A stretch of 64,000 nucleotides of DNA from NCBI GenBank assembly GCA_964602245.1, contig CAZRPY010000006.1:77-64076 (forward strand). The letters run 5' to 3'. Source of the DNA: an uncultured Methanosarcinales archaeon (GTDB lineage: Archaea; Nanobdellota; Nanobdellia; Woesearchaeales; JACPIF01). The notes below the pieces were generated by a model. It saw only the letters and a program-made list of their open reading frames with translations, was not told the origin of the DNA and did not search any database. Both the position numbers and the translations under genes were made by a program. This document shows positions 3,009 to 60,302 of this stretch, one piece after another (position 1 is the first letter of the stretch; every line of letters begins with the position of its first letter).

Positions 3009-3224
3009 ATGGTACTGAGGCATATTAGGAGAGGCTTGGTTAAAGCAGCAGCTGTTGGCATAGTAGCAGCTAGAAAGGTTAAACATGCTGTAATTGGAAA
3101 GAAGGGCAGCAAGAAAAGAGCTAAAGTCAAGAAGGTGGCAAAGGCAGCAGCTAAAATGGTTGCAAAGAAAGTGGCAGCCAAGGGAAAGAAGTTAGCTAAG
3201 AGGGTTGCAAGAAAGTTAAGGTAA
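3009..3224 (+). CDS. Extremely basic Lys/Ala-rich small protein (71 aa); putative nucleic-acid-binding
   Basis: GAGGTG SD upstream. By hand count 27 of 71 residues are K/R and none are D/E. Low-complexity AKK repeats. Confidence 0.55.
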   Translation: MVLRHIRRGLVKAAAVGIVAARKVKHAVIGKKGSKKRAKVKKVAKAAAKMVAKKVAAKGKKLAKRVARKLR

Positions 3225-8647: not shown

Positions 8648-9607
8648 ATGAGTAAGTTCGTATTTTCCAATGTACTTGGAGTATTTATCCTTGATGAGAA
8701 ATTTGAGATAGTTGATAAAAGGCTGTTTAAGGATTTGCATGAATATGAGATGAGGCAAATCTATATAGATGAGCTTAAAAGAAAGCATAAAAATTTGGAA
8801 GAGGTTGATAAAGCAGATAAAGCAGCTCTGCAAAAAGTTTTAGCTAACTTTAAGAAGCAAGACTTTTTTACTGACTTTTATGAAAGAAATTTAGAAATAA
8901 CAAAACAAGATATAAAAAATTCTGTGAAAGAAGACAGTTTGCTTGTGTCGGCTGTAAGTACAATAGAAGAGATTGATAAAATAATTAATCTTCTGGCAAA
9001 GAGGTTAAGAGAGTGGTATGAGCTTTATAATCCTGAAATATCAAAGCTTGTTGATGATCATGAGAAATTTATTAGTACTATAATTAAGAAATCTAAGAAA
9101 GAGATATTAGAGCAGCTCAGACTTTCCAGTAAGACTGCAATGGGAGCAGATCTAGAAAAAGAGGATATTAATGCTATAATGAATCTTGCAAACCATGTAA
9201 ATGAGCTATATAAGTATAAGGAATCTTTGGAAGCATATATTGAAAATATGATGGAAGAATTGTGTCCTAACTTGCTAGCAATTACTGGGGCAAGTATTGG
9301 CTCAAAATTAATCAGGCATACAGGATCATTGGAAAGGCTTGCAATCCTACCAGCGTCAACTATACAAATTTTAGGGGCGGAAAAGGCTTTGTTCAGGCAT
9401 TTAACTAAAAAGGCAAAGATGCCAAAATATGGCATAATTTTCCAGCACCCATTAATTCTAAAAGTACAAAAAGAGGAAAGGGGCAAGGCTGCAAGAGCTT
9501 TGGCTGATAAGATAGCAATAGCTGCGAAAGTTGACAGGTTTAAGGGAAAATTTATTGCAGAGCAATTGCTTCAAGAGTTGCATAAGAGGTTTGGTCAATG
9601 GAAATAG
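8648..9607 (+). CDS. nop5: C/D box snoRNP protein Nop5 (Nop56/58 homologue)
   Basis: ILGAEKALFRHL...PKYGIIFQHPLI...RGKAARALA is the Nop domain. Overlaps the downstream fibrillarin gene. Confidence 0.9.
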   Translation: MSKFVFSNVLGVFILDEKFEIVDKRLFKDLHEYEMRQIYIDELKRKHKNLEEVDKADKAALQKVLANFKKQDFFTDFYERNLEITKQDIKNSVKEDSLLVSAVSTIEEIDKIINLLAKRLREWYELYNPEISKLVDDHEKFISTIIKKSKKEILEQLRLSSKTAMGADLEKEDINAIMNLANHVNELYKYKESLEAYIENMMEELCPNLLAITGASIGSKLIRHTGSLERLAILPASTIQILGAEKALFRHLTKKAKMPKYGIIFQHPLILKVQKEERGKAARALADKIAIAAKVDRFKGKFIAEQLLQELHKRFGQWK

Positions 9608-10269
9608 TTAAATCAAAGTTTGAAGGCATATTTTTTATAGAAAATGGTATGAAGAAGTTGTTAACACGAAATATCACTCCAGGCTTAAAATTCTTTGATG
9701 AAGAGCTTTATGAAAATGGTGCTTACAGGCAGTTTGATCATAGAAGGAGTAAGTTAGCTGCTGCAATAATGAAAGGCTTATCACAATGGCCTTTTAGGAA
9801 AGATAGTGTAATGCTTTATCTTGGAGCTTCTCATGGCTATACATGCTCATTTTTGTCTGATATATTACATGAGGGATTAATTTTTGCAATTGATTTTGCT
9901 CCTAGAGTAGTTAGAGATTTAGTTTTCCTAGCTGAGCAAAGGAAGAATATTGGAGCTATACTTGCAGATGCAAATAATCCTTACAGTTACTTGCATAAAG
10001 TTTCTCAGGCAGATATAGTTTATCAGGATGTAGCACAAAGAAATCAGGCAGAGATATTTCTTAAAAATTGCAGAATTTTATTAAAACCAGAGGGTTTTGG
10101 ATTTATTGCAGTTAAAGCAAGGTCAGTAGATGTAACTAAAAAACCTAAAATTATTTTTAAGGAAACAAGAGAGATGCTTGAAAAAGAACTGGTAATTGTG
10201 GACTATAAAGAGCTTGAGCCTTTTGAAAAAGCTCATGCAATGTTTGTTTGTAAGAAGAAAAACCAATAA
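9598..10269 (+). CDS. flpA: Fibrillarin-like rRNA/tRNA 2'-O-methyltransferase
   Basis: RSKLAAAI...VLYLGASHGYTCSFLSDI...DVAQRNQAEI. Typical fibrillarin in the canonical nop5-flpA operon. Confidence 0.9.
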   Translation: MEIVKSKFEGIFFIENGMKKLLTRNITPGLKFFDEELYENGAYRQFDHRRSKLAAAIMKGLSQWPFRKDSVMLYLGASHGYTCSFLSDILHEGLIFAIDFAPRVVRDLVFLAEQRKNIGAILADANNPYSYLHKVSQADIVYQDVAQRNQAEIFLKNCRILLKPEGFGFIAVKARSVDVTKKPKIIFKETREMLEKELVIVDYKELEPFEKAHAMFVCKKKNQ

Positions 10270-10410
10270 TGTCAAAAACCACCATTTATAGAATGGTAGC
10301 ATGTTGCTGAACGCAAAAGTTATCAGTGGTTTTTGAGCATGCTCAAAAATTCCAGTGATTTAGGTAATTATATAAACCACTATTCATATAGAATAGTGGA
10401 ATTTTTGACA
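10270..10410. repeat. 141-bp imperfect nested palindrome (two inverted ~70-bp hairpin units)
   Basis: Termini tgtcaaaaa / tttttgaca. Centre gagcatgctc at 10335-10344. Each half closes on itself (tcaaaaaccac/gtggtttttga; tcaaaaattcca/tggaatttttga) and holds an inner hairpin. Confidence 0.7.
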
Positions 10411-20607: not shown

Positions 20608-20796
20608 GTGCTATAAGAAGAAACTCTGATATTAGTTTAGTATTAAATATATATAAAACACTATAAAAATACATTATAAATAAAAATCTGTATCTTTATT
20701 GGAATATTAGCAAATAAGATTTAAATATCTGGCTGTTTATATTAGATGATTGGCGCAAGAATAGACAAGAACTAGAAAAAAAGAAATCAAATAATA

Positions 20797-20902
20797 ACTT
20801 GCATTAACGACGCTTGCTATGCAAGCTGTGCGAGAGGTCCGCTTCGGTGATGGAACTTGAATGAAGCGGACAGGTAGACAAAATAAACCAAAAGTGCAAG
20901 TA
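20797..20902 (+). ncRNA. GC-rich structured element, family copy D (minimal three-helix form); structured sRNA or MITE-like element
   Basis: Closing helix acttgca / tgcaagt. P2 gcttgc-tat-gcaagc. P3 gtccgcttc (20837-45) / gaagcggac (20863-71). Conserved acaggtagac. Homologous to 41162-41315 and the other copies. Confidence 0.55.
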
Positions 20903-20946
20903 AATGAAAATCAAGAAATCAAAAGCAAACTCAAAGGTGATCCAAA

Positions 20947-21082: not shown

Positions 21083-21976
21083 CTATTTTCTTCGGTATAT
21101 CCAACCTACTCCTTTTCTTGAGAAGTCGTAACCTACTCTATCCATACCCTCTATAGATTGCAGAGACTTCTGCAATGCGAACGATTGTTCTCTAGCTAAT
21201 TGAGGACCTGGACCTGAAAACTCTAAGTACTCCTGAGCAAAAATTGCATCGAATACTCTGGCTATTAACTCATGATCAAAATTGACTTTCCTTGCTTCCT
21301 GTCTTGTAACATGAGGCTCGCTTCCAAACAAGAGCTGAAGTCTTTGTGGGCTATATCTTGCTCTGGCATGCTTTTCTGCATCAATTCCTGGTTGAGTGTA
21401 GCCAAACCCTTTATTATCTTCTTTAACTTTTAATGGATAAGCGCCATGCTGCATTGCCTTTTTTGCAAGTGGGATGTCATTTTTATTACCTCTTTCTATT
21501 TCTATAGCCACATACTTTATAGGTTTTCTATGAATCTCAAATGATTTTGTGTTTAGATGCCCCTTTAGTCCGCCTACAAGAGTATCAATAACTTCTGTTG
21601 AAACCCCTCTTGCACGAGCAGCATATCCCATAAACATCATAGGCTCACCTTTAACATCTAATAGGCTTCCATAAACTGCAGCGACTGGTCTTCCATTACT
21701 ATCTATTGCAACATAAGTAGCATGTCTGTATGTACTATTAATGACATCTCCTGATGGTACATTCATAAGTTCTCTTTGCTCTTGTGTCATTCGTCTAGGG
21801 GAAGTTTCAAGAAGTCTTTGAGCAAGCATTCTCTTCCTTAAAAACGCCTTATCTTCGGTATATTCAGGGCCTACTCCTCCTTGGATAAGCACCATAGTTC
21901 TATCAAATAGCCTTCTAAATCTATCAGAAGCCTTGTATTGAAGTTCAACAATTTTTACTTCTTGGTCTAAGGTCAT
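21083..21976 (-). CDS. Hypothetical protein (297 aa), visibly higher G+C than its surroundings; weak acetyltransferase-like motif
   Basis: Long ORF with non-low-complexity composition. MFMGYAARARGVSTEVIDTLVGGL loosely resembles GNAT motif A. No firm family assignment. Confidence 0.6.
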   Translation of the reverse strand: MTLDQEVKIVELQYKASDRFRRLFDRTMVLIQGGVGPEYTEDKAFLRKRMLAQRLLETSPRRMTQEQRELMNVPSGDVINSTYRHATYVAIDSNGRPVAAVYGSLLDVKGEPMMFMGYAARARGVSTEVIDTLVGGLKGHLNTKSFEIHRKPIKYVAIEIERGNKNDIPLAKKAMQHGAYPLKVKEDNKGFGYTQPGIDAEKHARARYSPQRLQLLFGSEPHVTRQEARKVNFDHELIARVFDAIFAQEYLEFSGPGPQLAREQSFALQKSLQSIEGMDRVGYDFSRKGVGWIYRRK

Positions 21977-26859: not shown

Positions 26860-26884
26860 TTCTTAAGACACTACGATTAAAAGA

Positions 26885-26958
26885 TGGGGTTGCCCGGATT
26901 TGAACCGGGATCACAAGGCCCCGAACCTTGGATAATAGCCAAGTTATACCACAACCCC
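26885..26958 (-). tRNA. tRNA-Pro (anticodon CGG), no encoded CCA
   Basis: Reverse complement reads GGGGUUG-UG-...-CAAGG-UUCGGGG-CCUUG-UGAU-CCCGG-UUCAAAU-CCGGG-CAACCCC-A. 7-bp acceptor, canonical T-loop, U33, G37. The D-stem is weak and AU-rich. Confidence 0.85.
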
Positions 26959-27044
26959 AAGCAATAATAGAAAATTTAAGCTGATTATTTAAGTTTTGTT
27001 AACTTATTATAAGAATTACATTTAGTACAAATTTTATCTCTTAT

Positions 27045-27240
27045 TTGCACTTTCTTCACAATTGCTATACCTATAGGAAGCCCTGCTTCCTAAATGTCTC
27101 GGAACAAAGGAAATCTCGATTTCCTAGTCTCGAAAATCGTATATTTTCGAAACATAGTTCCTCAACTAGTCCGCTTCATTTATGTTTCTTTGATGATTAG
27201 CGGACCTTGGCAAGGCACGCAGTTCGTGCCCGTAGTGCAA
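27045..27240 (-). ncRNA. GC-rich structured element, family copy C (longest, with an internally duplicated module)
   Basis: Minus strand reads ttgcactacgggcacgaactgcgtgcc...gtccgct...agcggac...gttgaggaac...ttcgagactaggaaatcgagatttcct...gttccgagacatttaggaagcagggcttcctataggta...agtgcaa. Confidence 0.55.
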
Positions 27241-27271
27241 TTATTATTATTAATTGATTAGAGGATTATAT

Positions 27272-39701: not shown

Positions 39702-41132
39702 ATGATGAACTTAAAAGAATATATTGCACAAGTTAAGTCAGGAAGCCTAGATATTATTGAGGAAACTCATAAGGCTATAGAAAATGCTAAGAAAATTAAT
39801 TCTATCTATAATTATTTTAATGTTATTTGTGAGGGGCATGCAATAACACAGGCAGAAAAACTAAAGGAGAAGATTAAACAGAAAAAGGCAAATGGAAAGC
39901 TACTAGGTGTTTTTATATCTGCTAAAGATAGCATATGTGTTAAAGATGTTGAGAGTACTGCTGGAAGCAAGATTCTTTCTGGCTATAAGCCCTTGTTTGA
40001 TGCACATGTCATTAAAAGAGTTAAGGAAGAGGATGGCATTATTATAGGAAAGACTAGCCAAGATGAGTTTGGATTTGGAAGCTTTAGCGTTAATATTGGC
40101 ATTGGCTATAAAGTTCCAAAGAATCCTTTTGATTTAGATAGAAGTTGTGGAGGCTCTTCAGGAGGGGCAGCAGGTATAGCTCAGAAAGCTAACTTTGCTC
40201 ATATTTCTTTAGGTGAAAGCACCGGTGGCAGTATTGCAGCTCCTGCATCTTTTTGCAGTGTTTTTGGATTATGCCCAACATATGGCAGAGTTTCTAGGTA
40301 TGGATTAATAGATTTTGGAAATTCTCTGGACAAGATTGGAGCTGTTGGAAAGAGTGTTTATGACACCAGATTATTGCAGTCTGTAATTTCTGGATATGAT
40401 GAAAGAGATAGCACTTCATTAAATGTTAATGAGGAAGATTATACTAAAATTATTGGAAAGAGTTTGAAAGGAATGAAGATAGGTATTATAAAAGAGGCTT
40501 TTGGTAATAATGATGAGGCTGTTGAGAAAAATGTTTATGATGCGATTGAAAAATTAAAAGAAAAAAAGATTGAGGTTGAACCAATTAGCCTAGAATTGCC
40601 GATAAAATATGGGTTAGCTGTTTACTATATTTTAGCAACTTCTGAGGCTTCAACTAATCTTGCAAAGTATTGTGGAATGAGATATGGCATGGCAGAGCAT
40701 TTAGAGGGTAATTTTAATGAATACTTTACTAAGGTAAGGAGCAATAATCTAGGTGATGAGGCAAAAAGGAGAATTATTTTAGGAACATTTGTTAGGATGT
40801 CTGGGTATAGAGATGCTTATTACATAAAAGCTGCAAAAGTAAGGACATTAATGATTCAGGAATATAAAAGGGCTTTTAAGAAATTTGATGCATTAGTTAG
40901 TCCTACTATGCCTATACTGCCGCCAAAGTTTTCTGATATAGCAAAATTAACACCATTGCAGAATTATATGATGGATGTATTATTGCTAGGACCTAATGTG
41001 GCTGGACTGCCACATATGAATGTTCCAGTTGGGTTTGAAGGAAAATTGCCTGTTGGCATGCTGCTAACATCAGATCATTTACAGGAAGGTAAGTTATTGC
41101 AGATTGCTAGCGTGTTTGATGAAAAACAATAA
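39702..41132 (+). CDS. gatA: Asp/Glu-tRNA amidotransferase subunit A (amidase signature)
   Basis: GGSSGGAA amidase signature, SKDSICVKD, GLPHMNVPVG. Confidence 0.92.
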   Translation: MMNLKEYIAQVKSGSLDIIEETHKAIENAKKINSIYNYFNVICEGHAITQAEKLKEKIKQKKANGKLLGVFISAKDSICVKDVESTAGSKILSGYKPLFDAHVIKRVKEEDGIIIGKTSQDEFGFGSFSVNIGIGYKVPKNPFDLDRSCGGSSGGAAGIAQKANFAHISLGESTGGSIAAPASFCSVFGLCPTYGRVSRYGLIDFGNSLDKIGAVGKSVYDTRLLQSVISGYDERDSTSLNVNEEDYTKIIGKSLKGMKIGIIKEAFGNNDEAVEKNVYDAIEKLKEKKIEVEPISLELPIKYGLAVYYILATSEASTNLAKYCGMRYGMAEHLEGNFNEYFTKVRSNNLGDEAKRRIILGTFVRMSGYRDAYYIKAAKVRTLMIQEYKRAFKKFDALVSPTMPILPPKFSDIAKLTPLQNYMMDVLLLGPNVAGLPHMNVPVGFEGKLPVGMLLTSDHLQEGKLLQIASVFDEKQ

Positions 41133-41161
41133 GTAGAATAAAAATAATAGAATAAAAAAAA

Positions 41162-41315
41162 ATTTGCACTATGAGCACGAACTGCGTGCTATATAAGGGT
41201 CCGCTTATCAGTGATGTAACTTCCCATGTAGCGGACATGTTGAAGGAACAATGTTCCGAGACATTAGGAAGCCGCAGCTTCCTACAGGTAGACCCAGTGC
41301 TCACAAATTGCAAAT
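41162..41315 (+). ncRNA. GC-rich structured element, family copy A (five-helix form)
   Basis: Closing helix atttgca/tgcaaat. Hairpins gcacg/cgtgc, gtccgct/agcggac, ggaac/gttcc, ggaagc/gcttcc. Conserved gagac and acaggta. About 46% G+C by hand count in an AT-rich background. Confidence 0.6.
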
Positions 41316-41341
41316 AAAATAAATTGATAATTAAAATAAAA

Positions 41342-42766
41342 ATGAGTAAACAACATTTTATAACTGATATTGTGATAGGTTTAGAGGTGCACGTAGAGCT
41401 AGACTGCAATACTAAATTGTTCTGCAGTTGCCCTACTAAAGGAAGTGAAGAGCCTAATACAAGAACATGTGAAGTATGCTTAGGGATGCCTGGAAGCAAG
41501 CCAGTGTTGAATGAAAGAGCAGTAGAGTATGCAGTTAAGCTTTGTATGGCAACTCATTGTGAGATTTCTCCAATATTAGTTTTCTCAAGAAAATCTTATT
41601 TCTATCCAGATATGGCTAAGAACTATCAGATAAGCCAGTATGAAATACCATTAGGAAAAAATGGGAAAATAGTGCTTAGCAATGGCAAAGAAATTTGGTT
41701 AATAAGGATACATATTGAAGAAGATCCTGCTTCTTTAGTGCATCCTGCTGGAATGAGGGAATCTGGATATGTTCTAGTGGATTATAATAGGAGTGGCAAT
41801 CCATTGGTAGAGATAGTTACAGAGCCTGATATTGCAAGTGCAGATGAAGCTAGAGATTTTATGAAAAAGTTAGTCAGCATACTAAATTATTTAGAAATAT
41901 TTGATTTAAATAAATGTGTTATTAAGGCAGATGCAAATGTTTCTATTAAGGAATCTGGTTATACTAGAGTTGAGATTAAGAATATAACTGGCTTTAAGGA
42001 GATTGAAAGGGCTATTGAATATGAAATAAAAAGGCAGAAAAAAGAGGTTAGTGAAGGAAATAAAATACATCAGGAAACTAGAGCATGGGATTCTGACAAA
42101 GGTGTTACACATTCCCTTAGGAAAAAAGAGGCTGAAGAGGATTATGGATATATCATTGAGCCAGATTTAGTTGTTACAAATATAAGTAATGAGTATCTTG
42201 ATAAAATAAAAGAAAGTTTGCCTGAGCTTGCTGAACAGAAGATTAAAAAGTTTTTAGAGAAGCATGGTATAAAGAAAGAAGATGCAGAGATACTTGCGGC
42301 TGAGAAAGAATTGGCAGAACTATATGAGAAAGTTGCAGAAGATATTAATCCTGAGCTTGCTGCTAAATGGCTAAGAAGGGAGTTAATGAGAGTAGTGCAT
42401 TATAGTGATAAAACACTAAAAGAAATTAAGATTGACGAGAAAAATCTTATTGCACTGCTTGAGTTAATTGAAAAGAAAAGGATTACAGATAAAGTTGGAC
42501 AAAGGCTAATGGAGATGTTAATAGCTAAGCCATTTGATGTTAAAGAATATGTGAAGAAAGAGAAATTAGAAGCACTTGCAGATGTTTCTGAGCTTGAGGA
42601 TATATGTAGGCAAGCTATTGAGGAAAATCCTAAAGCAGTTAAGGATTATAAGGCAGGAAGACTAGAAGCATTAAACTTTATTGTTGGAGCTGTGATGAAA
42701 AAGACTAAAGGCAAGGCAACACCTAAAGAGGTGAATGATATATTAAAAAGACTAATTGGCTTATAA
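41342..42766 (+). CDS. gatB: Asp/Glu-tRNA amidotransferase subunit B
   Basis: IGLEVHVEL, CEVCLGMPGSKPVLN, DYNRSGNPLVEIVTEPD. Start set at MSKQHF. Confidence 0.92.
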   Translation: MSKQHFITDIVIGLEVHVELDCNTKLFCSCPTKGSEEPNTRTCEVCLGMPGSKPVLNERAVEYAVKLCMATHCEISPILVFSRKSYFYPDMAKNYQISQYEIPLGKNGKIVLSNGKEIWLIRIHIEEDPASLVHPAGMRESGYVLVDYNRSGNPLVEIVTEPDIASADEARDFMKKLVSILNYLEIFDLNKCVIKADANVSIKESGYTRVEIKNITGFKEIERAIEYEIKRQKKEVSEGNKIHQETRAWDSDKGVTHSLRKKEAEEDYGYIIEPDLVVTNISNEYLDKIKESLPELAEQKIKKFLEKHGIKKEDAEILAAEKELAELYEKVAEDINPELAAKWLRRELMRVVHYSDKTLKEIKIDEKNLIALLELIEKKRITDKVGQRLMEMLIAKPFDVKEYVKKEKLEALADVSELEDICRQAIEENPKAVKDYKAGRLEALNFIVGAVMKKTKGKATPKEVNDILKRLIGL

Positions 42767-45693: not shown

Positions 45694-45942
45694 TTATCTT
45701 CTCCTTCTTCTTCTCCCGCCTCTCACCATCTTTGCTCTTGAGATATCACCTGATCTATCAATAAAGTAGAGGTAACCCTTCTGTTTTTTAACACCAGCTT
45801 TTGCCACAACTTCTACTTTGGCTCTGCCCTTTTTCCTGCCACCACGAGACATCTTTGCTCTAGAGACATTTCCGCGCTTATCTACAAAATATAGATACCC
45901 GTCCTGCTTTTTCACACCTACTTTTGCAACTTTTTCTGCCAT
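45694..45942 (-). CDS. Small highly basic protein made of two ~40-aa tandem repeats (GYLYF[VI]D...SRAKM.RGGR)
   Basis: The halves VAKVGVKKQDGYLYFVDKRGNVSRAKMSRGGRKKGR and VAKAGVKKQKGYLYFIDRSGDISRAKMVRGGRRRRRR align residue for residue. Confidence 0.6.
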   Translation of the reverse strand: MAEKVAKVGVKKQDGYLYFVDKRGNVSRAKMSRGGRKKGRAKVEVVAKAGVKKQKGYLYFIDRSGDISRAKMVRGGRRRRRR

Positions 45943-46003: not shown

Positions 46004-46100
46004 CGTCTTATTTTCATATTCTTTGACGAACTAGTTTATAAATGTTGCGGAAAATAAGACGAATTCCGAGACTAGGAATCAAGTTCCTATGTTGAGGAAA
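46004..46100 (+). repeat. Fragment related to the structured-element family (copy F): 12-bp hairpin plus a ccgagac-taggaa/ttccta-tgttgaggaa module
   Basis: cgtcttattttc (46004-15) pairs with gaaaataagacg (46050-61). attccgagactaggaatcaagttcctatgttgaggaa matches the inner module of copy C. Confidence 0.4.
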
Positions 46101-46114
46101 TTTTCTGTGGTAAG

Positions 46115-49472: not shown

Positions 49473-49871
49473 ATGCTAACCCTACAATTTATTCCGCATA
49501 GTGAGATTGAGCATCTTGGAAGTGCAAGAAGGGTTAAAAAACTGCTTGATTTAGTTAAGCAAGATAAGATTGTATTGCTTGAGGGGAGGCTAAGAGAGCA
49601 AGAGGAAAAAGATTTAATAGAAATTACAATGGAGGAGATTGATAATAAGTTTAAGGGCATAGAGCTTAGTGTAGTGTATCCTGATAATAAAAGTAATAGC
49701 TTATTAAAGAAGCTAAAGCATGGAATGATTAAGGCATTACTTGGATATAGGCAGGGGTTAACAATAATAGGGCCTGCCTCTATAGTCAAGGAGATTAAGA
49801 AGGATCCTGAAAAGATAGAATTATTAATAGTGGATAAGAGCAAAGGTAAAAAGAGAAAGATTAAAAGATAA
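49473..49871 (+). CDS. Conserved archaeal protein, DUF2073-like (from memory)
   Basis: Follows the GTPase with a 1-nt gap. I recall this family as the usual neighbour of such GTPases in archaea. Not verifiable here. Confidence 0.5.
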   Translation: MLTLQFIPHSEIEHLGSARRVKKLLDLVKQDKIVLLEGRLREQEEKDLIEITMEEIDNKFKGIELSVVYPDNKSNSLLKKLKHGMIKALLGYRQGLTIIGPASIVKEIKKDPEKIELLIVDKSKGKKRKIKR

Positions 49872-49883
49872 TATTATAATAAA

Positions 49884-50076
49884 TAATTTGCATAACGAGG
49901 CACGAGTTAGCAAGTACAGAACTGCGGTTCTGTAAGTACCTGCGTGCCTTTACCATAAGTCCGCTTATCCATGATGTATTGTGTGGTAGCGGACAGGTTG
50001 AGGAACTGCGTTCCGAGACCTCCGGAAACCATAGGTTTCCGACAGGTACTACAATAAGTCACAAAGTTGCAAGTTA
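49884..50076 (+). ncRNA. GC-rich structured element, family copy B (P2 carries an extra nested hairpin)
   Basis: taatttgca/tgcaagtta closing helix. aggcacg...cgtgcct with an inner acagaac/gttctgt hairpin. gtccgct (49959-65) / agcggac (49988-94). gttgaggaac-tgc-gttccgagac. cggaaacc/ggtttccg. acaggta. Confidence 0.6.
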
Positions 50077-50159
50077 ATATTAATAAATTGAATAATATAT
50101 ATTAAAATAAAATTTAATAACACTAAAAAATAAGAAAAATCTAATAAAAAGTGATTAAC

Positions 50160-50573
50160 ATGCCTCATCAATGTGTAAGATGTAATACTTTCTACGCAGA
50201 TGGTTCTAATGAAATATTGACTGGATGCAATTGTGGTGGCAAGCTATTTTTCTTTATGAAGCAGGAAAAGATGGAGGAATTGAAAAGGCTGCAGGAATAT
50301 GCTAAAAAACTAAGTTCAAAAGAGAAGCAAGAGATTGAAGAGGATATCTATGAAATTGCTGGAAGCGAGATAGACAGGACTGAACCAGTTGTCCTTGACT
50401 TGGAATCTGTCAGAATAATTGAGCCAGGAAAATATGAAATTGATTTAGTCCAACTCTTTAAAGGAGAGCCTCTGATATTTAAGCTTGAAGAAGGCAAATA
50501 TATGATTGACTTGATAGAGACTTTTAGAAGCATGGGAAAGCAGAAACAGACAAATAGGAAAAAAAGAGGCTAG
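50160..50573 (+). CDS. Zn-ribbon-containing protein (DUF2072-like, from memory)
   Basis: MPHQCVRCNTFY...GCNCGGKLFFF zinc ribbon followed by an acidic helical region. Confidence 0.55.
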   Translation: MPHQCVRCNTFYADGSNEILTGCNCGGKLFFFMKQEKMEELKRLQEYAKKLSSKEKQEIEEDIYEIAGSEIDRTEPVVLDLESVRIIEPGKYEIDLVQLFKGEPLIFKLEEGKYMIDLIETFRSMGKQKQTNRKKRG

Positions 50574-50574
50574 A

Positions 50575-51744
50575 TTAAATTTTGCTCGCATATATTTTAG
50601 CGTCATTAATTACTTTCTTTAAAGGAATATTATGTTTTTCAGCTATTTTAACACAATCTTCATATTCTGGGGAGATATTCAGTACTTTGCCATTTAATTT
50701 GCCAATCTTAAGTGTTATTTCTCCATACTTGGTCTTAACTTTTCTTTTTTCTATATCCAGTCTTTTCCTTGCAGTTGGATAAATTCTCATACCTAAGGTG
50801 GTTGTTTCTTTAAAAATAATTTCAGCTAATTTATCTGTATCATCTATTTTGCATATTACTGATAGCTTTATCCCTGGCCTTTGCTTTTTTATCATTATAT
50901 TAGTTAGAAAAACGTCTAATACGCCATTAGCAAATAATTTCTCCATTAAATATTGATAAATTTGAGGGTTCATATCGTCAATATTTGTTTCTATCATGTT
51001 TGTTATCTCTTCTTTTGGGTTTCTTTTTACTTCTTCACCTAGAAATACTCTTAAAACATTTGGATGCTCAAATTCATGATTACCTGCACCATAACCTATC
51101 TTTTCTAGCGTAAATTCTGGAGTTTGAAATTCTGCTAATGATAGAATAGCTGCACCTGTTGGAGTTACTAATTCCTTATCAATATCAATAGGTCTTATTT
51201 TTGCATTTGAATTCTTTAATATCTCTATTGTTGCTGGTCCTGGATTTGGCCATTTCCCATGAGAGAATTTTATGAAGCCATTGCCTAATGGAACTGAAGA
51301 AGAATATATTTTATCTATGCCTAATTTATTTAAGCATATAGATGTTGAAATAATATCTACAATTGTGTCAATTGCTCCTATCTCATGAAAGGTTAGCTGT
51401 GAAAGTGCTTTATTATGTATTTTAGACTCAGCTTTTGCAATATTATTAAGTATTCTGATTGCCAAATCCTTTACTTGTTTTGAAAGCCTGTTTTTTTCTA
51501 TTACGGTTAATATATCATTATAGTTTCTTTCATGTACTTTTGCTTTTTTGTCTATTATCACATTAAATTTAGTTGCTATAATGCCCTTTTTATTAACTTT
51601 CTTTGCTTCGATGTGATACCCTTTTAGATTTAATTTATTCAGCTCTGATTTTAGGTAATTGATAGGAATTCCTAAATCTAGCAGTGCACCAGCTGTCATA
51701 TCGCCTGATATGCCTGAAAAGCAGTCAAAGTAGAGTATTTTCAT
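50575..51744 (-). CDS. larC: Nickel-pincer cofactor biosynthesis protein LarC (nickel insertion, DUF111)
   Basis: MKILYFDCFSGISGDM N-terminus, HEIGAIDTIVDI. 389 aa single-chain form. Confidence 0.85.
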   Translation of the reverse strand: MKILYFDCFSGISGDMTAGALLDLGIPINYLKSELNKLNLKGYHIEAKKVNKKGIIATKFNVIIDKKAKVHERNYNDILTVIEKNRLSKQVKDLAIRILNNIAKAESKIHNKALSQLTFHEIGAIDTIVDIISTSICLNKLGIDKIYSSSVPLGNGFIKFSHGKWPNPGPATIEILKNSNAKIRPIDIDKELVTPTGAAILSLAEFQTPEFTLEKIGYGAGNHEFEHPNVLRVFLGEEVKRNPKEEITNMIETNIDDMNPQIYQYLMEKLFANGVLDVFLTNIMIKKQRPGIKLSVICKIDDTDKLAEIIFKETTTLGMRIYPTARKRLDIEKRKVKTKYGEITLKIGKLNGKVLNISPEYEDCVKIAEKHNIPLKKVINDAKIYASKI

Positions 51745-51746
51745 TT

Positions 51747-52325
51747 TTATTTCACCTTTACAGCATCAATAAAAATCATAAAAATACCAGTATGGTTGTT
51801 TATTTTAAAGTCATTATCTTCAAGAAGCTTAAACAATTCTTGTTTCGTAAACATAGATTCTGGAGGAAATAGCTGCCTTATAGGCCAGATAAAAGTTTGT
51901 TTTGTAAAATCCATTATATAGAAATGGCCGCCTCTCTTCAGTACTCTAGCAGATTCCTTAATTACTTTAGGATATTCTTTGATATGGTGCAAAGCTTCTG
52001 TTTCAAGCACATAGTCAAATTCTTCATTTTTAAAATTTAATTTTGTGCCATCTCCCTGTTCAAATTTAACATTCTTTAAATGCCCATTTCTCTTCTTGGC
52101 TAAATAGATTTGACTTTTATCATAATCTATTGAAATTATTTTTATATTTTTGTATTCTTTGCTTATTAACTTGCTAGTTTCTCCAACACCACAACCAATC
52201 TCCAAGACTCGGCCTTTTAATTCCTTATTTATAAATCTAAATAGCGAGGGGAAAAATATAATCTTATGGAAAAGATTACAAAAATCAGAGTTTACAAACC
52301 ATTTCTCAAATTTGTGCATTTCCAT
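51747..52325 (-). CDS. Class I SAM-dependent methyltransferase
   Basis: VLEIGCGVGE motif I. Embedded between larB and larC with 2-nt and 28-nt gaps. Confidence 0.75.
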   Translation of the reverse strand: MEMHKFEKWFVNSDFCNLFHKIIFFPSLFRFINKELKGRVLEIGCGVGETSKLISKEYKNIKIISIDYDKSQIYLAKKRNGHLKNVKFEQGDGTKLNFKNEEFDYVLETEALHHIKEYPKVIKESARVLKRGGHFYIMDFTKQTFIWPIRQLFPPESMFTKQELFKLLEDNDFKINNHTGIFMIFIDAVKVK

Positions 52326-52353
52326 ATTCTTTTTAATTTTAGTACTAGCTACT

Positions 52354-53091
52354 TTATTTATTAATCAAGCTAGCAAAATAGCCTGCGCCAAATCCATTGT
52401 CTATATTTACAACAACAATTCCTGGGCAGCATGAGTTTAGCATTGAAAGTAAAGCAGATAAGCCTTGGAAATTTGAGCCATAGCCAACTGATGTTGGAAC
52501 AGCTATAACTGGCTTTGAGGTTAAGCCGCAGATTACAGAGGGCATCGCACCTTCCATTCCAGCAATAGCAATTATTACATTTGGTTCTTCAAATTTATCT
52601 ATATTTTTTAGAATTCTTTGAATTCCAGCAACACCAATATCATGTATTACTTCTACATTATTGCCCATTAATTCTGCTGTAACTTTAGCTTCTTCTGCAA
52701 CTGGAATGTCAGAAGTCCCTGCAGTTAAAATTAATATTTTACCTTTCTTTTGATTTAAGATTTTATTTTTTCTTATTACTATTGTTCTTGCAATTTTATT
52801 GTATTCGGCATTTTTAAATCTCTTAATTATAACTTTGGCAGTATCTTCTTTAACTCTTGTTAGAAGTGTACTGGAATTATTCTTACTCATGTGCTTAGCA
52901 ATCTTTACTACTTGTTCAGCTGTCTTGTTCTGGCAAAATACAACCTCTCCAAAACCTTTTCTTAAATGCCTATGATAGTCTATTTTTGCAAAATCAATAT
53001 CCTTAAAAGGGAGAGTCCTTAACTTACTTAGAACATTCTTTTCTTGGATCTTTCCATTCTTGAAATCCTGGAGAAGCTGTTGGACATTCAT
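52354..53091 (-). CDS. larB: Nickel-pincer cofactor biosynthesis protein LarB (NaAD carboxylase/hydrolase, PurE-like)
   Basis: ILTAGTSDIPVAEEA and GMEGAMPSV are PurE/AIR-carboxylase-like. The N-terminal extension is typical of LarB. Confidence 0.8.
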   Translation of the reverse strand: MNVQQLLQDFKNGKIQEKNVLSKLRTLPFKDIDFAKIDYHRHLRKGFGEVVFCQNKTAEQVVKIAKHMSKNNSSTLLTRVKEDTAKVIIKRFKNAEYNKIARTIVIRKNKILNQKKGKILILTAGTSDIPVAEEAKVTAELMGNNVEVIHDIGVAGIQRILKNIDKFEEPNVIIAIAGMEGAMPSVICGLTSKPVIAVPTSVGYGSNFQGLSALLSMLNSCCPGIVVVNIDNGFGAGYFASLINK

Positions 53092-53092
53092 A

Positions 53093-53965
53093 TTATTTAA
53101 TTTCAGATAATTTAATGACAGATTCTTTTAACATAGCATTATTTAAGTTGCCAGATTTGAATTCTCTTAAGTCAAGAGTTGTGAACTTGAAGCCAACCTC
53201 TTTGAATCTCTTGTCTATAATGTCTTTATTTTGTACTATTAGCAATATATCCTCAGCCTTAACCTCAATCCTTGCAATATCATCATGATGCCTTACTCTG
53301 AATTCTTTAAAACCTAAATCTTCAAGTAAGCTTTCAGCTAAATCAATCATTCTTAACTTTTGTGGTGTTATTTCCTTGCCATAGGGAACTCTTGAAGAAA
53401 GACAGGGTGATGAGGGCTTGTCATGGGTAGGTAGATTGTAGAACTTTGAGAGCTGTCTTATATCCTGCTTTGTAAAGCCTAGCTCTTTTAACGGGCTTCT
53501 AATATCGTGCTCTGATGCAGCTTTCATTCCAGGCCTGTAATCAGATAAGTCATCGTAATTTGTACCGTCTATGATATGTGGAATATTCATTTCTTTTGAT
53601 AAACTAGTAAGCTTAGTATATAACTCATCTTTACAGAAATAACATCTGTTACTAGGATTTTGCTTATAATTCTCATTATCTAGCTCTTCAGTACTAATTA
53701 TCTTATGGTTAGCTCCGATTAATTTTGCCATATTAATAGCATCTCTGAAATCTTTTTCTGCAATTGAGGGAGAATAAGCTGTAACTGCAATAGCATTATT
53801 GCCAAGCACTTCAGTAGCGACTTTTGTTAAGAAAGTTGAGTCAACACCACCTGAAAAGGCTATAATTACTTTATTCATTGCTCTTAGCTCTTTTTTTAAT
53901 TTGTATAGTTTCTCTTTTAACTCTGGATTTAAGTCTTCTTGTTTTTGCTTTAACTTAACTTTCAT
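53093..53965 (-). CDS. larE: ATP-dependent sacrificial sulfur transferase LarE (PP-loop)
   Basis: AFSGGVDS PP-loop and the SPCLSSR cysteine motif. Confidence 0.85.
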   Translation of the reverse strand: MKVKLKQKQEDLNPELKEKLYKLKKELRAMNKVIIAFSGGVDSTFLTKVATEVLGNNAIAVTAYSPSIAEKDFRDAINMAKLIGANHKIISTEELDNENYKQNPSNRCYFCKDELYTKLTSLSKEMNIPHIIDGTNYDDLSDYRPGMKAASEHDIRSPLKELGFTKQDIRQLSKFYNLPTHDKPSSPCLSSRVPYGKEITPQKLRMIDLAESLLEDLGFKEFRVRHHDDIARIEVKAEDILLIVQNKDIIDKRFKEVGFKFTTLDLREFKSGNLNNAMLKESVIKLSEIK

Positions 53966-54648
53966 AATAAACCTCCCAAACCTATTTTGTAAATAATTGA
54001 TAAGCCAAGGAAAATGCTGATTAAGGCTGAGAAAGCTTTTAGTGCATTTTTGGTATTTTCTAACCTTGCAGGAATTAGCGTGAAAGGAATTGATATTATT
54101 GAGCTTATGAGCATCATTCCTAGGATTGAGCCTGCTCCAAAAATTAAGATGTACAATAATCCTAACCAGATAGAATTAATAGTGCTTAACACTAATAAGG
54201 AAAGGACAGCACTTCCTGCTAAGCCATGCAATATTCCTATATATAATGATTTATGTGTATGATTATGATGATATCTAATATATTTATGGGAATGAAAGTG
54301 TAAATGACTATTGGTTCCATGTTTATGTCTATGGATATGCACTTTATCCTTTACTATTTGTATTGCTAAATTTATTCCTAGTATTAAAAGCATGATTCCT
54401 ACAATTAGTTCAAATGATAAAGCTAATTTTTCTGGGATTGAAATTTTTAATAGTAAGATAACTAAGCCAATTGCTAGCAAGGCTATAGTATGACCCAGGC
54501 CCCAGAACATGCCAAGCAGGGAAGCTTCTTTTATAGTTCTATCTTTAGAAATCATAGTAGAGATTGCAGCTATATGGTCTGCATCCAGTGCATGCTTAAT
54601 TCCTAGCAGGAAACCAAAGCCTAGTAATGTGAAAGGCAAAATACTCAT
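53962..54648 (-). CDS. Nickel/cobalt transporter (NicO/RcnA-like) with a His-rich loop
   Basis: LGIKHALDADHIAAI signature. Loop HIHRHKHGTNSHLHFHSHKYIRYHHNHTH. Six TM helices. Confidence 0.8.
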   Translation of the reverse strand: MSILPFTLLGFGFLLGIKHALDADHIAAISTMISKDRTIKEASLLGMFWGLGHTIALLAIGLVILLLKISIPEKLALSFELIVGIMLLILGINLAIQIVKDKVHIHRHKHGTNSHLHFHSHKYIRYHHNHTHKSLYIGILHGLAGSAVLSLLVLSTINSIWLGLLYILIFGAGSILGMMLISSIISIPFTLIPARLENTKNALKAFSALISIFLGLSIIYKIGLGGLL

Positions 54649-54747
54649 AATACTTCGAATTATACTAATTTAGAACAGCTTATAAATATTACGTTTTTTA
54701 GAATAGTAACACCAAGATTTATATATCAAATTATTTTTCTTATCTTT

Positions 54748-55134
54748 ATGGCAGATAAAATAGCAAGAACAGGGGTTTCTTTTGATCCATATTTACTCAA
54801 AAGATTTGACGAGTACATTAGGCAAAAGGGTTATAAGAAAAGAAGTGAAGCAATATCTGATATTGTAAGAGAAAGGGTGTTTAAGTCAGAAGAAAAGCAA
54901 GTAGTTGCTGTAATAAGGATTATTTATGACCCCAGAGAGGGGCACTTTAATGTTAATTTAACAAAGTTTCAGCATGAATATAACTGTTTGATATTATCTA
55001 CAACAAGGGTTTATCTTGACTACCACACATGCCTTGAGATAATGGTTGTTAAGGAAAGTAGGGAAAAATTAAAAAGAATCCTTAAGAAACTTAAAAAGCT
55101 GAATGTTAAAGATGTGAGGATGGAGATTGTTTGA
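54748..55134 (+). CDS. nikR: Nickel-responsive transcriptional regulator NikR (ribbon-helix-helix plus ACT-like domain)
   Basis: TGVSFDPYLLKRFDEYI...RSEAISDIVRE RHH domain. C-terminal H...H..C candidate metal ligands. Confidence 0.8.
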   Translation: MADKIARTGVSFDPYLLKRFDEYIRQKGYKKRSEAISDIVRERVFKSEEKQVVAVIRIIYDPREGHFNVNLTKFQHEYNCLILSTTRVYLDYHTCLEIMVVKESREKLKRILKKLKKLNVKDVRMEIV

Positions 55135-60057: not shown

Positions 60058-60129
60058 AATGGATTATTATGAAAATAAATTTAAAAACAATTAAGATATA
60101 AAAGAATAAAGAATATTAAAAGATAATAA

Positions 60130-60266
60130 CTTGCACTACGACGCCAACTTCGTTGGCTGTGCCATTAGTCCGCAACCGTTGTGCCAATTATAAGATATAA
60201 AAATTATAGGGGGATTACAAATTAAGTGATTAAAATAATAGCACTAAAATAAACAAATTTGCAAAT
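60130..60266 (+). ncRNA. Structured-element family copy E (5' half and 3' tail conserved, central P3 degenerate)
   Basis: cttgcactacgacgccaacttcgttggctgtgccattagtccgc parallels copy D. The 3' tail actaaaataaacaaatttgcaaat parallels D's acaaaataaaccaaaagtgcaagt. No gcggac partner is present. Confidence 0.4.
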
Positions 60267-60302
60267 TATATAAAACTCAAATAAAATTCAAAAATAATAG
60301 GG

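Follow-up and report, generated by a model that had tools for sequence, protein, structure and literature searches.

A folded, modular interspersed repeat between oapB and oapC and its lineage-specific family in Woesearchaeota

What separates oapB from oapC in this archaeal genome, and is the G+C-richer island between them a dedicated RNA gene? The question arises in a 64,000-nt stretch of DNA (the window, 33.6% G+C overall) from an organism that the source names of homologues of its OapB place in the Woesearchaeota. The stop of oapB lies at 49871 and the ATG of oapC at 50160, leaving a 288-nt gap between two genes of the + strand. Pfam assigns the products to OapB (PF09846, E = 2e-20) and OapC (PF09845, E = 2e-25), and the gene upstream of oapB encodes a small GTPase that is OapA-like. 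The island, at 49884-50076 (+), is 193 nt long; it is referred to here as copy B and fills the spacer. A first-pass annotation of this DNA had implied a dedicated structured RNA gene tied to the GTPase/OapB/OapC string. This does not agree with the unrelated gene contexts of other copies or with the site turnover, nesting and decay described below, and the interpretation as a whole is partly supported. We conclude that copy B is a member of an undescribed, lineage-specific family of small, modular, folded interspersed repeats.

Position and fold of copy B

The unconstrained minimum-energy (MFE) fold of copy B recovers five helices (P1-P5) along with an extra hairpin. The element and its immediate flanks, in order along the DNA, comprise:

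49867-49883, + strand: A/T-rich leader, directly 5' of P1, beginning 5 nt before the oapB stop
49884-49892 with 50068-50076, + strand: P1, TAATTTGCA with TGCAAGTTA, 9 bp including one U-G
49898-49949, + strand: P2 as a whole, from the MFE fold
49898-49904 with 49943-49949, + strand: outer stem of P2, AGGCACG with CGTGCCT, from the MFE fold
~49905-49942, + strand: accessory tip module of P2, from the MFE fold
49916-49933, + strand: extra hairpin within P2, ACAGAAC-TGCG-GTTCTGT, from the MFE fold
49950-49958, + strand: J2/3 junction, TTACCATAA, from the alignment of 23 copies
49959-49994, + strand: P3 as a whole, whose 22-nt loop includes ATC and GATGTA
49959-49965 with 49988-49994, + strand: stem of P3, GTCCGCT with AGCGGAC
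49997-50041, + strand: accessory P4-P5 module
49997-50006 with 50010-50019, + strand: P4, GTTGAGGAAC with GTTCCGAGAC, 10 positions including tandem G.A/A.G
50023-50030 with 50034-50041, + strand: P5, CGGAAACC with GGTTTCCG
50042-50067, + strand: conserved 3' junction and tail (ACAGGTA..CACAAAG)
50077-50090, + strand: A/T-rich trailer, ATATTAATAAATTG

The 193-nt extent and the helices had been described in the first-pass annotation, as had the closing helix of 9 bp with one G-U and the hairpin hosted by P2; the sequence and the unconstrained fold confirm all of them. The description of P5 as rewritten yet still paired holds for the pairing. P5 reads GGAAGC/GCTTCC elsewhere in full-length copies, and rather than wholesale rewriting we find in copy B one compensatory change (G-C to A-U) and one extra pair at each end. 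P4 reads GTTGA-GGAAC...GTTCC-GAGAC, with the tandem G.A. The full leader string, GATAATATTATAATAAATAA, extends over 49867-49886, its last 3 nt overlapping P1, and the trailer resembles AATAATATCAAATAACTCA, the trailer behind many copies elsewhere (e.g., L017, L036, L037 and L045; L numbers denote the loci and contigs compared with the window).

Copy B has a minimum free energy of -74.1 kcal/mol, compared with -48.2 +/- 4.2 kcal/mol for 200 dinucleotide shuffles (z = -6.16), none of which folds as well. The reverse strand folds less well (z = -4.70). The element contains no plausible ORF, and indels are not multiples of three.

Rfam 15 returned no match in the whole window at gathering thresholds, and at E <= 1 only the tRNA-Pro and three chance matches elsewhere. 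At E <= 10, the interval 49700-50300 gave only rli34, which is unrelated and lies outside the element, and no self-cleaving ribozyme family. A tRNA- or tmRNA-like identity was rejected because ARAGORN calls no tRNA at copy B, its sole call in the window being the tRNA-Pro at 26883-26959. In a kink-turn, a canonical and a non-canonical stem are separated by a 3-nt bulge and, after it, tandem sheared G.A pairs. The tandem G.A of P4 could suggest such a site for L7Ae, but GUU pairs with GAC and leaves no bulge, and there is no complementary C-stem 5' of GUU. Box C/D RNAs carry the boxes RUGAUGA (C) and CUGA (D), and H/ACA RNAs a pseudouridylation pocket and an ACA box. The P3 loop offers only a C-box-like RUGAUGU, with no D box; the 'ACA' of the element overlaps the P3 stem, with neither pocket nor upper stem. 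The features required of a bulge-helix-bulge are likewise absent from the sequence.

A lineage-specific family assembled from modules

Five copies are present in the window, beginning at 20793, 27040 (-), 41158, 49882 (copy B) and 60125. The four others are:

41158-41320, + strand: copy A, full type, between gatA (39702-41132) and gatB (ATG at 41342); nhmmer E = 1e-10, covariance model 48.4 bits, z = -5.28
27040-27245, - strand: copy C, full type, downstream of an HtrA-like protease gene and upstream of tRNA-Pro; z = -7.04
20793-20906, + strand: copy D, mini type, downstream of an RFC-like AAA+ gene; covariance model 113.1 bits, E = 2e-23
60125-60275, + strand: copy E, degenerate, between the T2SSE ATPase and T2SSF genes; covariance model 37.2 bits

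The module order that the first-pass annotation gave as common to copies A and B is indeed seen at 41158-41320. Copy D consists of P1-P2-P3-tail (AGGTAGAC-AAAATACAC...) without P4-P5. In copy E, P1, P2 and J2/3 are intact and the 3' strand of P3 is lost. A 297-aa ORF without a Pfam match (21083-21976, -) is convergent with copy D.

Beyond the window, scanning metagenomes for a P3-based pattern yielded 18 loci, 16 of them real. A covariance model of the mini core finds 23 distinct copies in 173 kb of contigs of the clade and, with filters off, none in 93 kb from more distant relatives. The pattern GTCCGCTN{15,35}AGCGGACNNGTTGAN{0,1}GG gave 14 matches in a scan of GTDB genomes, a chance-level number, all in high-GC bacteria, and a profile search confirmed none of them; a scan of viral contigs gave no matches. 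Outside the family copies, the window shows no enrichment of the terminal motifs GTTGCAAAG and AATAAYTTGCA. We found no description of such a repeat family in the literature.

The family unit consists of an A/T-rich leader, the three-helix core P1-P2-P3, a conserved A-rich tail and an A/T-rich trailer, and element size ranges from ~110 to 210 nt. Two optional hairpin modules are added in copy B, a P2 tip of ~38 nt and a P4-P5 block of ~45 nt. The tip module, GUUAGCAAGUACAGAACUGCGGUUCUGUAAGUAC, recurs nearly unchanged in L017, L039, L041 and L048 within different outer stems, and copy B is in effect a GCACG-type P2, like those of copies A and C, with the tip module placed in its loop. P4-P5 is found only in the five full copies (A, B and C of the window and those of L038 and L043) and is missing from the oapB-oapC copies of L017 and L021. 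In copy C, a second P4-P5-like unit is nested in the P4 loop. At 46054-46101 (+) an isolated 48-nt hairpin (z = -3.35) has the motifs of P4-P5, circularly permuted (..TTCC-GAGAC-hairpin-GTTGA-GGAA..). The syntenic spacer of L017 lacks this hairpin, so the accessory module was inserted here separately. The first-pass annotation had seen a conserved core with variable insertions at helix tips. A folded family is what we find, with the qualification that the P2 tip and P4-P5 are separable modules and not expansions of one RNA.

Copies within one genome are only ~65-75% identical, and paired structure is under selection at the family level, as covariation, slid controls and a test of P2 show. In a model-guided alignment of the 23 copies, 85.8% of cells are paired, compared with 80.9% after partner shuffling and ~33% after sliding, and covariation scores 0.143, compared with 0.080 for shuffles (0 of 500 as high). 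P2 stems are wholly different between subfamilies (GCUUGC, GCCUCC, UUUUGC, GCCUCG, GCACG, GCUCAGC and others), and P2 variants are common to subfamilies across loci and genomes. MAFFT alignments were unsuitable for this helix (with whole copies MAFFT misplaces the P2 insertion of copy B, and with isolated P2 hairpins its alignment is not structural), so we used an explicit partner-shuffle test. Canonical pairs number 73 of 78, compared with 39.8 when partners are exchanged (0 of 2000 as good), and most of the 5 non-canonical pairs come from 2 of the 13 entries (L043 and the row W_B/L017), which are in the wrong register. The P3 stem is nearly invariant in 22 copies, and three copies have a double change at the seventh pair (U-A to C-G). 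Covariation supports P2, and P3 at one pair. P1 is 81.7% paired across the family, with frequent C.A mismatches in the TTCGCA subfamily. P4 is identical in all five full-length copies and therefore has no covariation support of its own.

The strongly conserved unpaired stretches are UGUGCC, AGGUAGAC and the GAUGUA loop. The consensus of J2/3 is UGUGCC-AAAA and that of the tail is AGGUAGAC-AAAAUACAC-AAAnCG. Visual inspection suggests a possible J1/2-J2/3 pairing (UACG/UGUG; in copy A, UAUG/UAUA). The two strands of the mini core fold almost equally, the forward strand being the more stable in 14 of 23 copies. Because these energies barely differ, the strand is chosen mainly from gene orientation and the oligo-T asymmetry, together with U.G pairs and the tandem G.A.

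Site turnover, nesting and orientation

The first-pass annotation had stated that the GTPase, DUF2073 and DUF2072 genes are usually immediate neighbours. Comparison of oapB-oapC spacers shows that this was right and that the insertion is lineage-specific (OapB identities are to the window protein):

Window: 288 nt, with copy B
L021, OapB 94%: 227 nt, with a mini copy that has an insertion in P3
L017, OapB 87%: 593 nt, with a copy nested in an older copy, plus fragments
L023, OapB 84%: 146 nt, with a diverged G+C-rich version in which P2 and P3 are compensated
L053, OapB 83%: 54 nt, without the element
More distant relatives, OapB 67-75%: 1, 2, 5, 9, 31 and 33 nt, without the element

The version in L023 (47% G+C), at 1197-1342, has P3 GUCCGCGA/UCGCGGAC and neither P1 nor leader. 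Its P3 variant recurs in a second copy at 9470-9594, at the contig end, and the covariance model detected neither of the two. In L017, four spaced TAGTTGCAAAG repeats (the P1 3'-strand motif) follow the nested element at 10190-10310, still in the oapB-oapC spacer; single TTGCAAAG motifs lie behind copies in L036, L038 and L043, and the window itself shows no enrichment of the motif. Between oapA and oapB there are 2 nt in the window, 72 nt in L017 and 80 nt in L053 (875-955), where the spacer includes a small G+C-rich, hairpin-like stretch, TGTTGTGCCATGCGCAGCACC.

Presence and absence at orthologous sites is seen at two more places besides oapB-oapC. Between gatA and gatB the window carries copy A with leader and trailer (~209 nt), and in L045 gatA and gatB share an ATGA overlap. 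The GatA and GatB proteins of the window and L045 are 82% identical, and the L045 DNA is ~80% identical to window 36-44 kb. Upstream of an aspS-like gene, L045 carries a nested pair and the window is empty. Orthologous copies also differ by whole modules at 87-94% identity of the flanking proteins (L017 and L021 compared with the window).

At least 10 of the 23 copies are nested in the P3 loop of a second copy and split it into two halves, the order being outer 5' half, A/T-rich leader, complete copy, trailer and outer 3' half. Insertion points within the loop vary by 3-9 nt. The outer copies are mutually different, some of them decayed, and the inner ones often belong to one subfamily, which argues for repeated insertion into one loop and not for a composite unit. 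The element behaves as a mobile interspersed repeat. P1 (TTTGCA/TGCAAA, up to 9 bp in copy B) forms an inverted repeat with frequent mismatches, and the leader and trailer travel beyond it. The flanks are A/T-rich, with a possible ATC duplication at nested junctions that is inconsistent across copies; no target-site duplication or exact element end was definable from the copies compared. Upstream of the approximate 5' ends of the 23 copies we saw no common fixed motif of the 4-5 nt that a constant target would have.

We found no partner transposase, recombinase or reverse transcriptase and no parent element in the window or the loci, nor did we see tnpA or tnpB there. At the contig end of L038 (8019-8276, -) we noted an N-terminal fragment of an IS630/Tc1-like transposase (…RITPRPKHIKNDPVKVNEF…), which lies ~7.7 kb from a family copy and has no homologue in the window.

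The neighbours of the family include oapB/oapC, gatA/gatB, the HtrA-like protease gene and tRNA-Pro, the RFC-like gene, T2SSE/T2SSF and many others in the loci. A riboswitch or gene-specific cis-regulatory RNA was rejected because these show no consistent gene family. Insertions are carried by the operons gatA-gatB, oapB-oapC and T2SSE-T2SSF. Copies are co-oriented with the upstream gene in 16 of 18 cases and with the downstream gene in 17 of 22. Oligo-T is the archaeal termination signal, and on the sense strand of 23 units, flanks included, there are no runs of five or more T and 24 runs of five or more A. Given the sense orientation and the absence of sense oligo-T, we infer that the element is probably read through within the host mRNA and folds there. 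Antisense copies would act as archaeal terminators and be polar, which would explain both the orientation bias and the tolerance of copies inside operons.

In most of the 23 copies the A/T-rich leader upstream of P1 includes a TATA-like box. The leader recurs near-identically in nested copies (AAAAACTTTAAATAAAAYAA) and therefore travels with the element. Many genes of the window have a TATA box (TTTAAATA, TTTATATA or TTTATAAA) that begins 29-32 nt ahead of their start codon (e.g., the ORFs at 1271, 7798, 8648, 17775, 23205, 26149, 35608, 45552, 47403, 54748 and 62659). This suggests that most mRNAs of the organism may be leaderless, which would fix promoter spacing at 30 nt from TATA box to start. 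An independent RNA gene with its own promoter was considered, since the leader resembles promoters, but with a 30-nt spacing the start would fall inside P2, so neither a promoter role nor an independent RNA gene is supported.

Nature of the family

We judge it a little better than an even chance that the family consists of structured, mobile but non-autonomous repeats that resemble REP/BIME, BOX or MITE elements and are passively carried in host mRNAs. The mobile part of this reading is supported by multi-copy lineage restriction, filled and empty sites, nesting, decay, subfamilies and orientation bias. The family would have colonised intergenic spacers, including those inside operons, of one group of Woesearchaeota (DPANN archaea). 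Transcription would probably pass through the element as part of the host mRNA, in which it would fold, and antisense insertions, creating archaeal terminators, would be selected against. Integration would probably depend on an enzyme acting in trans and reading folded hairpins, in RNA or in single-stranded DNA, as the insertions in hairpin loops suggest, with the invariant P3 as its likely handle. Counting against mobility are the lack of a transposase or recombinase partner and of target-site duplications or exact ends, and the low identity among copies of one genome counts against a recent MITE burst.

Bacterial REP/BIME and pneumococcal BOX elements are small, high-copy extragenic hairpin mosaics that are co-transcribed, form stable RNA and are preferred insertion targets. 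The family shares with them small size, lack of coding capacity, high copy number, extragenic location, hairpin modules, probably also co-transcription and stable RNA folding, and the role of preferred target for further insertions. It differs in being archaeal (DPANN) and unrelated in sequence, and in its core, where a junction of three helices, with P3 invariant and the junction strands conserved, takes the place of a simple palindrome. No RAYT-type gene or GTAG-type 5' tetranucleotide was seen for the family, and nesting of its copies in a single specific loop is much commoner.

MITEs include the Correia elements of Neisseria, ERIC, RUP and, among archaea, Sulfolobus SM1-4, and cut-and-paste MITEs are usually without orientation bias. 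The family resembles MITEs in being short, non-coding, non-autonomous, intergenic and multi-copy (5 copies in the window, 23 in 173 kb), with possibly inverted termini (P1 as an inverted repeat of 6-9 bp), presence/absence polymorphism, nested copies and sites inside operons. Unlike MITEs, its copies are not near-identical but strongly diverged with compensatory stem changes, it has no recognisable target-site duplication or identified parent transposon, and it is orientation-biased.

Integration directed to hairpin structures is also known from class C bacterial group II introns, which target terminators, and from IS1397-like elements, which target the loops of REP sequences. Those elements are autonomous and protein-coding (the intron being a ribozyme as well), whereas the family has no ORF in its ~110-210 nt. 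The unusual traits of the family are the three-helix junction with an invariant hairpin, the compensated subfamilies and the marked self-nesting in one loop.

The conserved unpaired stretches and the compensatory changes are also expected of a functional RNA bound by a host factor, and the element could be a host-selected structured RNA, acting in cis in the operon transcript (as a processing site, 3'/5'-end stabiliser or cistron insulator) or as a small RNA bound via P3, that spread by duplication and was kept as useful. This we regard as possible but rather unlikely. Strong covariation in P2, the compensated change in P3, the sense orientation to neighbouring genes and freedom from terminator signals would all fit, as would insertion between functionally coupled genes without visible harm. 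The oapB-oapC site is occupied in four related genomes, with helices compensated even in the 47%-GC relative, and this could reflect retention by selection. Against such a role, gene contexts are mutually unrelated, sites filled in one genome are empty in a close relative, and degenerate and interrupted outer copies occur. Orthologous copies differ by whole modules while the flanking proteins remain 87-94% identical, and the TATA-like box of the leader would start transcription inside P2.

We hold it improbable that the family is an RNA-centred mobile element or a DPANN-specific ribonucleoprotein RNA, in which the folded transcript, bearing the invariant P3 and junction strands, would be the active agent and the DNA copies its footprints; the transcript might insert itself into exposed hairpin loops via a small circle, or serve as a recognition RNA for a recombinase. 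More doubtful still is a selfish element acting at the RNA level, whose folded transcript or small circle would insert into exposed hairpin loops of other transcripts or of DNA by ribozyme- or ligase-type chemistry and later become fixed in the genome. In its favour, all three kinds of nesting (a copy in P3, the tip in P2 and P4-P5 in the P4 of copy C) are in hairpin loops, the permuted hairpin at 46054-46101 fits a circle that can open at more than one point, and the three-way junction has invariant junction nucleotides. However, only one permuted module is seen, single-stranded DNA exposes hairpin loops just as well, and there is no reverse transcriptase or ribozyme signature, including at the E <= 10 threshold for self-cleaving ribozymes.

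Descent from a single-strand DNA transposon of the IS200/IS605 type, with a hairpin-reading Y1 HUH transposase moving the element, is very improbable: the family shares with such palindrome-associated elements its dependence on hairpins, strong strand and orientation bias, G.T-tolerant stems and lack of clear terminal inverted repeats or duplications, but they carry similar left and right hairpins, whereas the variable P2 and invariant P3 are dissimilar, and no constant 4-5-nt target was apparent ahead of the copies and no tnpA or tnpB was found in the window or the loci.

For the preferred reading, a mobile structured repeat carried in host mRNAs, the setting is of interest. The genomes of DPANN archaea are tiny and densely packed and are generally considered poor in mobile elements, and here one lineage tolerates ~1 structured repeat per 13 kb, including sites between genes coupled in translation. 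With its sense orientation to neighbours and its lack of a terminator signal, the element appears adapted to harmlessness, and by targeting its own hairpin loop it would direct new copies to a safe site. Recent genome dynamics in uncultured archaea have a natural marker in this family, and the invariant P3 is a likely handle for finding a hairpin-recognising recombinase or RNA-binding protein. It also calls for caution in the discovery of RNA genes through GC islands in AT-rich archaea, as a structured and covarying sequence is not necessarily a dedicated RNA gene.

Several other features of the window were noted. Adjoining oapC, at 50575-55134, is a cluster of genes for the nickel-pincer cofactor and nickel handling (LarC-like (Ni_insertion), a methyltransferase, LarB-like (AIRC), LarE-like (NAD_synthase), NicO and NikR), assigned by Pfam matches on the identical contig L001. 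Two small lysine/arginine-rich ORFs lie at 45694-45942 (-) and ~3010-3222 (+). The one of 82 aa has an internal duplication (…KKQDGYLYFVDKRGNVSRAKM… occurs twice) and no Pfam match, and is kept beside a DUF3368 gene in relatives.
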